A stretch of DNA of 57,022 bases, taken from the UHGV virus genome UHGV-1526745; one strand, 5' to 3'. How positions within the stretch are numbered: position 1 is the first letter of the stretch; each line of letters begins with the position of its first letter. The notes beneath the pieces are model-generated. The model saw only the letters and a list, made by a program, of their open reading frames with translations. It made no database searches and had not been told where the DNA came from. Positions 30,271 through 30,843 of the stretch are shown here, piece by piece. This stretch comes from a virus. The translations under genes were made by a program, and so were the position numbers.

Positions 30271-30843
30271 TTACCCTCTCTTAAAGCTCATAACGCGCGG
30301 TACAAGCGCCTCTTTTGCTTTCGGCTTACGTTTGCCTTTCTTAGCTGGTTTTTTCTCTTCTTTCGGCTCCTCTGCCTGTTCTGCTGCATCAGTCGCCTGC
30401 TCTGCCTTTTCTAACGCCTGCTCAACGACTTCAGCCGCCTGCATCGCTGTGATCTGTGCTTCGTTTGATTCAGCCAGGATTGGGAAGAATGCGTCAAAGA
30501 TACGTCCAACCATGTAAGCGTAAGTCTCATTCGCAGGATGAGTAGGATCAGTGGTCGCCACGACGCCTACATCACTTAAAACGTGGAATGTAGTGTGAGC
30601 GCATTCATGGACCAGCGTTCCAGTCTCATTGTTGAATACTGCGATCACGTAGAAATTACCGCCGGTCTCACCAGTACAGGTTAACGTCAGACCGCCAGCT
30701 AGTTCGAAATCAGGTTCGATTGGTATTCCGGCCTTTTCGCAAAATTCATAGAACATCTCGCGGGTCGGGCAAAAGAAAACGGTTGTATGCTCAAAGAGCG
30801 GGACTTTGAATTGAGGCAACTTAATGCCTTTAGCCTTAGCCAT
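30271..30843 (-). CDS. HExxH-motif protein with Lys-rich C-terminal tail (putative zinc metallopeptidase)
   Basis: 190-aa track ORF; HECAHTTFH motif; C-terminus EEKKPAKKGKRKPKAK. Confidence 0.55.
   Translation of the reverse strand: MAKAKGIKLPQFKVPLFEHTTVFFCPTREMFYEFCEKAGIPIEPDFELAGGLTLTCTGETGGNFYVIAVFNNETGTLVHECAHTTFHVLSDVGVVATTDPTHPANETYAYMVGRIFDAFFPILAESNEAQITAMQAAEVVEQALEKAEQATDAAEQAEEPKEEKKPAKKGKRKPKAKEALVPRVMSFKRG

Follow-up and report, generated by a model that had tools for sequence, protein, structure and literature searches.

A putative minimal zinc metallopeptidase with a polybasic tail, encoded between the lysis and packaging genes of an Escherichia coli prophage

Introduction

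The subject of this work is a gene at positions 30,271 to 30,843 on the minus strand of UHGV virus genome UHGV-1526745, a stretch of 57,022 nucleotides (nt) to which we refer as the window. It encodes a protein of 190 amino acids (aa) with an HExxH motif, whose closest known systems include the minigluzincins (proabylysin/projannalysin) and the gluzincin clan (M3, M4, M9, M32, M48). The enzyme class is very well known; the family to which the window protein belongs is already catalogued, as PHROG 1365, and uncharacterised.

Three further groups of HExxH proteases invite comparison. SprT-like enzymes use a downstream His as third zinc ligand, to which bacterial SprT adds a C-terminal zinc ribbon. 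The window protein may work in the manner of SprT/Wss1/Spartan, as a small HExxH protease with a basic, probably DNA-binding segment attached, and differs from them in having no Pfam match, a predicted Glu as third ligand and no zinc ribbon. Wss1 is activated by DNA and has itself been likened to minigluzincins (PMC4559962). From the ImmA/IrrE/CapP proteases (M78) the window protein is set apart by the absence of an M78 match and of a helix-turn-helix (HTH) partner gene, and by its gene being located outside the immunity region, with late genes around it. The MPTase-PolyVal domain of polyvalent proteins, to which the C-terminal domain of ArdC corresponds, is likewise a zincin-like protease, and both phages and conjugative elements carry it; the window protein, by contrast, stands alone instead of forming part of a polyvalent protein and is found in a late-gene setting, as opposed to early/entry functions. 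ArdC pairs its protease with a DNA-binding module.

The true homologues among named phage proteins are HkcC of P22 and HK620 and gp49 of ST64T, which are 35-46% identical to the window protein over the domain and have the same HECAH and NETYCY motifs. Like the window gene, they share a strand with the late structural genes of temperate enterobacterial phages. At 121-129 aa they lack the acidic linker and polybasic tail of the window protein. In the genome paper of epsilon34 (PMC2629481), hkcC appears among the genes whose function is unknown. From the comparisons described below we consider it reasonably probable, at somewhat better than even chances, that the window gene encodes an accessory late-gene zinc metallopeptidase which in this lineage carries a polybasic tail as a tether, and which is independent of the tiny peptides encoded next to it.

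Results

A constrained gene with an invariant HExxH...E signature

The listing of open reading frames (ORFs) of the window contains a single ORF at 30271..30843, read on the minus strand (30843→30271). Its features, and those of the junction with the next ORF, are as follows.

30271..30843, minus strand: whole gene, 190 aa, ATG start, TAA stop at 30273-30271; putative zinc metallopeptidase
30853..30857, minus strand: Shine-Dalgarno sequence AGGAG, 9 nt 5' of the ATG, as read from the sequence
30472..30843, minus strand: catalytic domain, residues 1-124, as delimited in the AlphaFold2 model; the PHROG 1365 match spans residues 1-132
30595..30609, minus strand: HECAH (H79, E80, H83), the two predicted zinc-binding His and the predicted catalytic Glu
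30526..30531, minus strand: N105-E106 of the NETYAY motif; E106 is the predicted third zinc ligand, on the next helix
30364..30471, minus strand: acidic, Ala/Glu/Gln-rich helical linker, residues 125-160, with indels between relatives
30274..30363, minus strand: polybasic tract KKPAKKGKRKPKAK and C-terminal peptide EALVPRVMSFKRG, residues 161-190
30200..30280, minus strand: junction and first tiny ORF MFTFLLGVFVGIAAAVILIYGH (22 aa, 30268-30200), with the Shine-Dalgarno-like sequence GAGAGGG at 30280-30274

The gene was compared with those of four related phages at a synonymous divergence (dS) of ~0.5. The ratio of nonsynonymous to synonymous changes (dN/dS) was ~0.06 for the whole gene, which corresponds to strongly purifying selection, and 0.06-0.10 for the catalytic domain; the ribosome-binding site is a good one, and the start region is also conserved in relatives. 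The ORF is a real, constrained gene with strong constraint at both ends, and a spurious ORF is ruled out by the dN/dS of 0.06. The ORF of 190 aa with its HECAHTTFH sequence, as described in the initial annotation, is thus borne out; the motif corresponds to residues 79-87, and the minus strand has to be added to the description.

An HExxH motif occurs in just two of the 208 window ORFs of at least 60 aa. Across an alignment of 86 divergent homologues, with a mean column identity of 19%, the sole invariant positions are G51, H79, E80, H83 and E106, so that HExxH and E106 are the only invariant polar residues of the family. A chance occurrence of HExxH is excluded because the motif is invariant. 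Its conservation among homologues, the point on which the initial annotation had made its reading depend, is therefore clear. A library search found HExxH in 145 of 148 family representatives and a candidate Glu 16-32 residues past the second His in 143 of them, and the downstream motif NE[TA][FY][CA]Y recurs throughout the family. In the window protein E106 sits 23 residues past H83, where helix 103-134 starts. The third His of HECAHTTFH, H87, varies across the family. The predicted arrangement is HExxH...E and not HExxHxxxH, which is the gluzincin type with a Glu ligand on the next helix. The original description of the protein as zinc-metallopeptidase-like fits the invariant HExxH and E106 on consecutive predicted helices, but does not extend to H87, which is not conserved.

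An AlphaFold2 model of the domain, built on the 86-sequence alignment, has a predicted local distance difference test (pLDDT) score of 95.1 and a predicted template modelling (pTM) score of 0.88. It contains a four-stranded sheet (strands 11-13, 21-25, 51-57 and 63-69), a backing helix (28-38), the active-site helix bearing HExxH (74-91) and the helix with the Glu (103-134). A profile search of the sequences in the Protein Data Bank (PDB) listed zincins only (M35, astacins), with non-significant E-values of 0.24-1.2 and alignments covering the strand-plus-HExxH region; a single-sequence search of the same sequences gave nothing meaningful, and Foldseek found no match to the model in the PDB. 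We have fair confidence, from sequence and model, that the protein is a minimal zincin-type metallopeptidase of a family with no curated model or solved structure. It has no signal peptide or membrane segment and is therefore predicted to be cytoplasmic.

Relation to known families

The match of the window protein to PHROG 1365 has an E-value of 3.2e-31 (residues 1-132 against profile positions 3-125 of 127), and all 86 aligned relatives match the same family. When residues 1-135 were searched exhaustively against 1.84 billion cluster representatives, 149 proteins were obtained; the family is a stand-alone one and has a median length of 122 aa. The 121 close relatives returned by a word-indexed search are almost all E. 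coli entries named 'hypothetical protein'. One homologue (P0118, 59% identical) is labelled in nr as 'PolyVal Metallopeptidase superfamily domain', which we regard as a lead only, and a comparison of the family profile with a collection of 5.8 billion proteins produced no named or Pfam-annotated relative except for this one 'PolyVal' label. Searches of Pfam, NCBIfam and PADLOC with the full-length protein yielded noise only, in the form of low-complexity matches to the Ala/Glu linker, and a literature search on phrog_1365 or MPTase-PolyVal found nothing.

The initial annotation had considered an SprT- or ImmA-like protease, a membership which did not hold up. With the SprT-like family PF10263 the window protein gave no match even at E-values up to 10, while E. 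coli SprT, used as a control, scores 82.5 bits; among the relatives, 20 of 86 match SprT-like in Pfam, all below threshold, with a best E-value of 9.4e-4. The alignment of the family with an enterobacterial SprT profile by hhalign reached a probability of 9% and lay outside the HExxH region, the profile being a shallow one of 16 sequences in which all SprT relatives are at least 75% identical to the query. No relationship was seen by hhalign with the single E. coli SprT sequence, and the Pfam family Zn_ribbon_SprT has no match in the window protein. Peptidase_M78 (ImmA/IrrE, COG2856) was equally without a match at E-values up to 10, it is not among the 25 families most often matched by the 86 relatives, and no HTH repressor gene adjoins the protease gene, whose neighbours are Rz/Rz1, the tiny hydrophobic ORFs and the terminase. 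PF18818 (MPTase-PolyVal) also gave no match at E-values up to 10, and there is no ArdC-N domain. By the available tests the protein appears to be no member of the SprT, ImmA/IrrE or PolyVal/ArdC families; it may work like these enzymes.

A second, more divergent HExxH protein of 137 aa is encoded in the IMG/VR sequence UViG_7000000005_000071 (L011, 2920-3330), ~1.5 kb downstream of the PHROG 1365 homologue on the same contig. This protein, in which HEAAH and an E further downstream are retained, matches phrog_882 at 7e-21 and phrog_1365 weakly at 5e-7. We take PHROG 882 to be probably a sister family of PHROG 1365.

The C-terminal extension

The protein had been described as ending in a strongly basic tail. 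A basic tract, EEKKPAKKGKRKPKAK, is indeed present at residues 162-177, but the protein continues beyond it for another 13 conserved residues, EALVPRVMSFKRG. In the comparison with the four related phages the linker has a dN/dS of 0.11-0.24, indicating more relaxed selection. The tail has values of 0.05-0.09 against the three phages which share it and of 0.28 against mEp013, where the tail is different; it is as constrained as the catalytic domain. Residues K168, K171, R172, K173, K175, K177, P182 and V184 are invariant in 25 relatives. The model of the full-length protein shows a long helix at 104-157 and a disordered segment at 160-190, with pLDDT below 50.

Extensions of this kind are rare. 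Of 145 family representatives only 4 (~3%) extend by 25 aa or more, each of them with a K/R-rich sequence. Homologue P0121, which is 56% identical in the catalytic domain, keeps the succession of a K-rich segment and VPRIARYKRG and ends in ...KPKKASKPKAKPIKEEYVPRIARYKRG. Repeats of the KKPAKK type are typical of histone-H1-like DNA-binding tails.

Two observations on similar sequences may be added. The protease of mEp013 has a different, still basic C-terminal tail, ...KEAKRKAKAKAKEPPKVEKYIVAWRSRYAMG. The small terminase (28759-29274, minus strand) has the N-terminal sequence MARTKKANADDKKPAAKKTGRPHGY, starting ...DDKKPAAKKTGRP, with a KKPA(A)KK-type motif like that of the protease tail KKPAKKGKRKPKAK. 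Going by these sequences, the small terminase and the protease tail may bind the same DNA or partner.

The adjoining array of tiny ORFs

Nine tandem ORFs of 22-35 aa, each consisting of a single hydrophobic span, occupy 29440-30268 on the minus strand. The last codons of the 190-aa gene double as a Shine-Dalgarno-like sequence, GAGAGGG (30280-30274), and the ATG of the first tiny ORF, at 30268, lies 2 nt past the TAA. The initial annotation had placed the stop 5 nt from the ribosome binding site and considered co-translation probable; the geometry of the junction does make translational coupling plausible, but the Shine-Dalgarno sequence is inside the gene and the ATG only 2 nt past its stop. 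The first tiny ORF is probably coupled to the protease gene.

The tiny ORFs are kept as reading frames in the mEp phages and in MagusPhagus, with a pooled dN/dS of 0.18-0.32 (dS 0.27-0.41), and they are probably real micro-genes. Many start with M-x-x-[hydrophobic]-[D/E] (MIDPLII, MNIYDLIWW, MDIFELLAI, MNAYEMLLL, MKWLDFFFL, MNAIDIML). No leader or shared cleavage motif was found in the peptides, and none of the nine matches a PHROG family; the 47-aa ORF that follows has a marginal PHROG match only (E=0.009).

Within this group of phages the array is variable, its units being gained and lost like cassettes. In MagusPhagus, mEp021 and mEp554 the first tiny ORF abuts or overlaps the end of the protease gene, and the coupled ORF is not the same one: it starts MFTFLL... 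in the window and MagusPhagus and MIDPLIIL... in mEp021, and is an unrelated 33-mer in mEp554. In mEp013 a gene for an HNH endonuclease is inserted directly past the protease gene, with an overlap of 14 nt (L007, 2018-3023). Two E. coli prophage variants of the protease (P0048 and P0049, 209-211 aa) run past the usual stop, giving ...KRGDYGYFPVGFIYRNGCGCNIAGGGVMTWTLTQ; these are probably stop-loss or frameshift variants which enter the region of the first tiny ORF. The array was not found beside the homologues in ST64T, P22, HK620 or 26 IMG/VR loci, and the latter have no room for it, the protease gene usually abutting the next gene. The protease and the tiny-peptide array are best treated as separate features.

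A recurrent position between lysis and packaging genes

The order of genes around the protease gene in the window is as follows.

32309-32064, minus strand: holin
32143-31571, minus strand: endolysin
31601-31113, minus strand: Rz with embedded Rz1
30844-31112: spacer of ~270 nt between Rz and the protease gene
30843-30271, minus strand: protease gene
30268-29440, minus strand: nine tiny hydrophobic ORFs
29428-29285, minus strand: 47-aa acidic ORF
29274-28759, minus strand: Sf6-type small terminase
28784-27270, minus strand: large terminase
27212-25821, minus strand: portal

The protease gene shares its strand with the flanking late genes and is presumably part of the late operon. The nucleotide identity of the region is 84-89% with the mEpimmI coliphages (mEp021, mEp554, mEp010, mEp013 and others) and with MagusPhagus; the records of these phages annotate the homologues as 'hypothetical protein'. 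The chromosome of E. coli 2017C-4173W12 contains a locus with 100% identity to the gene, and the gene occurs in 31 of the 5426 complete genomes of E. coli, from which it follows that the window is a prophage.

A tblastn search found the family in 80 of 50,697 phage records, and outside the mEp group all of these are P22-like. The gene of ST64T gp49 (129 aa, 46% identical) lies between an Rz spanin gene and terS, the same slot as that of the window gene. In HK620 and P22, hkcC follows the ejection gene 16 within the 'ant moron', whereas the window gene precedes terS. HkcC of HK620 has 121 aa, and the identical intact ORF is present in P22, where it is without annotation as a coding sequence (BK000583, 13861-14223; L004, 3001-3363) and keeps HECAH and NETYCY. 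Its first 31 nt are annotated only as the promoter of sieA, on the opposite strand.

More distant loci came from a pattern scan of IMG/VR based on a 19-sequence subset of the family, which gave 26 loci at 30-51% identity. In ~14 of the ~20 loci with enough downstream sequence the gene is directly followed by ORFs of the size of terS, terL and portal genes. When the loci were scanned with PHROG and pooled, the downstream neighbours were TerS, TerL and portal and the upstream ones endolysin and Rz-like spanins; scanned individually, 7 of 10 loci had as their next substantial ORF a small terminase, drawn from three different PHROG families. A minority of IMG/VR loci have the protease gene after tail genes. 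The typical feature of the family, seen in many unrelated temperate phages, is thus the lysis-packaging slot and not one particular partner. The lysis-terminase junction is a common slot for accessory genes. We take the protease gene to be accessory and not needed for morphogenesis.

Spacer and head module

The first ~165 nt of the spacer at 30844-31112 are more than 90% identical among five phages, in which the coding regions reach only 84-89%; mEp021 and mEp013 carry a 58-nt insertion in it, and the records of both annotate a terminator in this region. We found no Rfam match in the spacer and no RNA fold above chance (z = -0.8), and a consensus scan revealed no sigma-70-like promoter or terminator on the strand of the gene. 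A cos site in the spacer is unlikely because the terminase is of the Sf6 type (pac).

In the head module (22183-25879, minus strand) Pfam recognised no prohead protease between the portal and the major capsid genes. The proteins encoded there are a Mu-F-like protein of 314 aa, proteins of 442 aa and 123 aa without match, and a DUF6260 protein of 350 aa. The counterpart of the last one in MagusPhagus is annotated 'virion structural protein', and the 350-aa protein may be the major capsid protein.

Discussion

We infer zinc binding, proteolytic activity and late expression. According to the reading we favour, the product would be a small soluble metallopeptidase of a phage-borne, minimal gluzincin-type family, PHROG 1365. 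A single zinc ion would be bound by H79 and H83 of the active-site helix and by E106, located where the following helix starts; E80 would serve as general base, and the substrate would pack along the edge strand of the small beta-sheet. In this E. coli prophage lineage the core of ~125 aa is joined to a lineage-specific extension made up of a flexible acidic helical linker, a histone-H1-like polybasic tract and the conserved terminal peptide. As the least secure step we infer a tethering function for the tail, with DNA or a partner protein as the anchor. The tethered enzyme might then cut one or more DNA-associated or partner-bound proteins late in infection, or after having been co-packaged and injected.

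Several points weigh against this interpretation. The argument for tethering is one of composition. Because ~97% of the family representatives lack the tail, it is not central to what the family does at its core. The protein matches none of the families in Pfam, NCBIfam or PADLOC. Within the mEp group the coupling with the first tiny ORF has been kept, so that a local functional link is possible, and the position next to terS could reflect a functional link with packaging or lysis.

In a more specific form, the protein would be a DNA-tethered protease that clears proteins, a functional analogue of eukaryotic Spartan/Wss1 which arose independently from a different minimal zincin. Placed on the phage DNA by its histone-H1-like tail, it would strip off bound proteins of the host or of defence systems shortly before headful packaging or while this proceeds; in another version it would be packaged along with the DNA and, once injected, cut defence proteins of the next host. 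Such a role, if true, would account for the frequent slot directly upstream of terS whatever the terminase family. We regard it as unlikely in this explicit form. That the protein is instead a genuine member of the SprT/Wss1/Spartan family or an ArdC-type PolyVal metallopeptidase has a distinctly small probability: the sub-threshold SprT-like matches in 20 of 86 relatives (best E-value 9e-4), the single 'PolyVal' label in nr and a basic tail recalling the DNA-binding regions of DNA-activated proteases point that way, but the window protein itself is unmatched at E-values up to 10, the hhalign comparison with SprT (9%) aligns off the HExxH, and the third conserved ligand would be Glu and not His, with H87 unconserved and neither zinc ribbon nor ArdC-N domain present. 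Quite improbable as well is an anti-repressor protease of the ImmA/IrrE type (M78), which would control induction by cutting the repressor of its own or of a competing prophage; the failure to match M78, the absence of an adjoining HTH repressor gene and the late-gene location have been described above.

Other explanations start from the neighbouring genes. The initial annotation had suggested that the protease might process the peptides encoded downstream, in which case it would mature, trim or degrade the nine tiny hydrophobic peptides and form one functional operon with them. The tight junction, with the stop 2 nt from the first tiny ATG and a Shine-Dalgarno sequence inside the gene end, its counterparts in MagusPhagus, mEp021 and mEp554, and the purifying selection on the tiny ORFs are what this idea would lead one to expect. 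It is nevertheless decidedly unlikely because the family typically occurs without the array: ST64T, P22 and HK620 lack it and most IMG/VR genes abut terS or an ordinary gene. Even within the mEp group the downstream gene varies, since the first peptide differs between relatives, whole units come and go, and an HNH endonuclease gene separates the protease gene from the tiny ORFs in mEp013. The peptides are single hydrophobic spans of 22-35 aa with no leader or shared cleavage motif, and the protease, which has no signal peptide or membrane segment, is predicted to be cytoplasmic. An accessory lysis factor, tuning the timing of lysis with, for instance, an antiholin or an envelope factor of the host as its target for degradation, would suit a gene located 270 nt downstream of Rz/Rz1. 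In distant loci, too, the genes found most often upstream of it are those for endolysin and spanin. We consider it quite unlikely: the protein has no signal peptide or membrane anchor though most lysis substrates are membrane-bound or periplasmic, the copy in P22 and HK620 is far from the lysis genes, some IMG/VR loci have it after tail genes, and a place at the lysis-terminase junction is one that accessory genes commonly take. A prohead protease for capsid maturation, or a non-catalytic structural or packaging protein, might be proposed from the proximity of terS in most family loci, from the lack of a canonical prohead protease in the head module by Pfam and from a basic tail that could target the procapsid. 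This is very unlikely indeed, since the gene lies outside the portal-to-capsid block, is sporadic in its presence and movable in its position, and is carried by P22-like phages, which to our knowledge leave their capsid proteins unprocessed; the invariant HExxH...E speaks against a non-catalytic role. Moreover, the mEp021 record does not give the homologue, gp49, the tag 'virion structural protein' that it assigns to other proteins, and the mEpimmI paper, in which 16 structural proteins were identified by mass spectrometry, makes no mention of gp49 (PMC11893012).

The family of the putative metallopeptidase is widespread in temperate enterobacterial phages, including the model phage P22 with its hkcC, and the recurrence of its slot beside several families of terminase suggests that its accessory role recurs as well. 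Should its targets be proteins of the host or of defence systems, the protease would extend the known phage tools for counter-defence or host takeover by a proteolytic mechanism.

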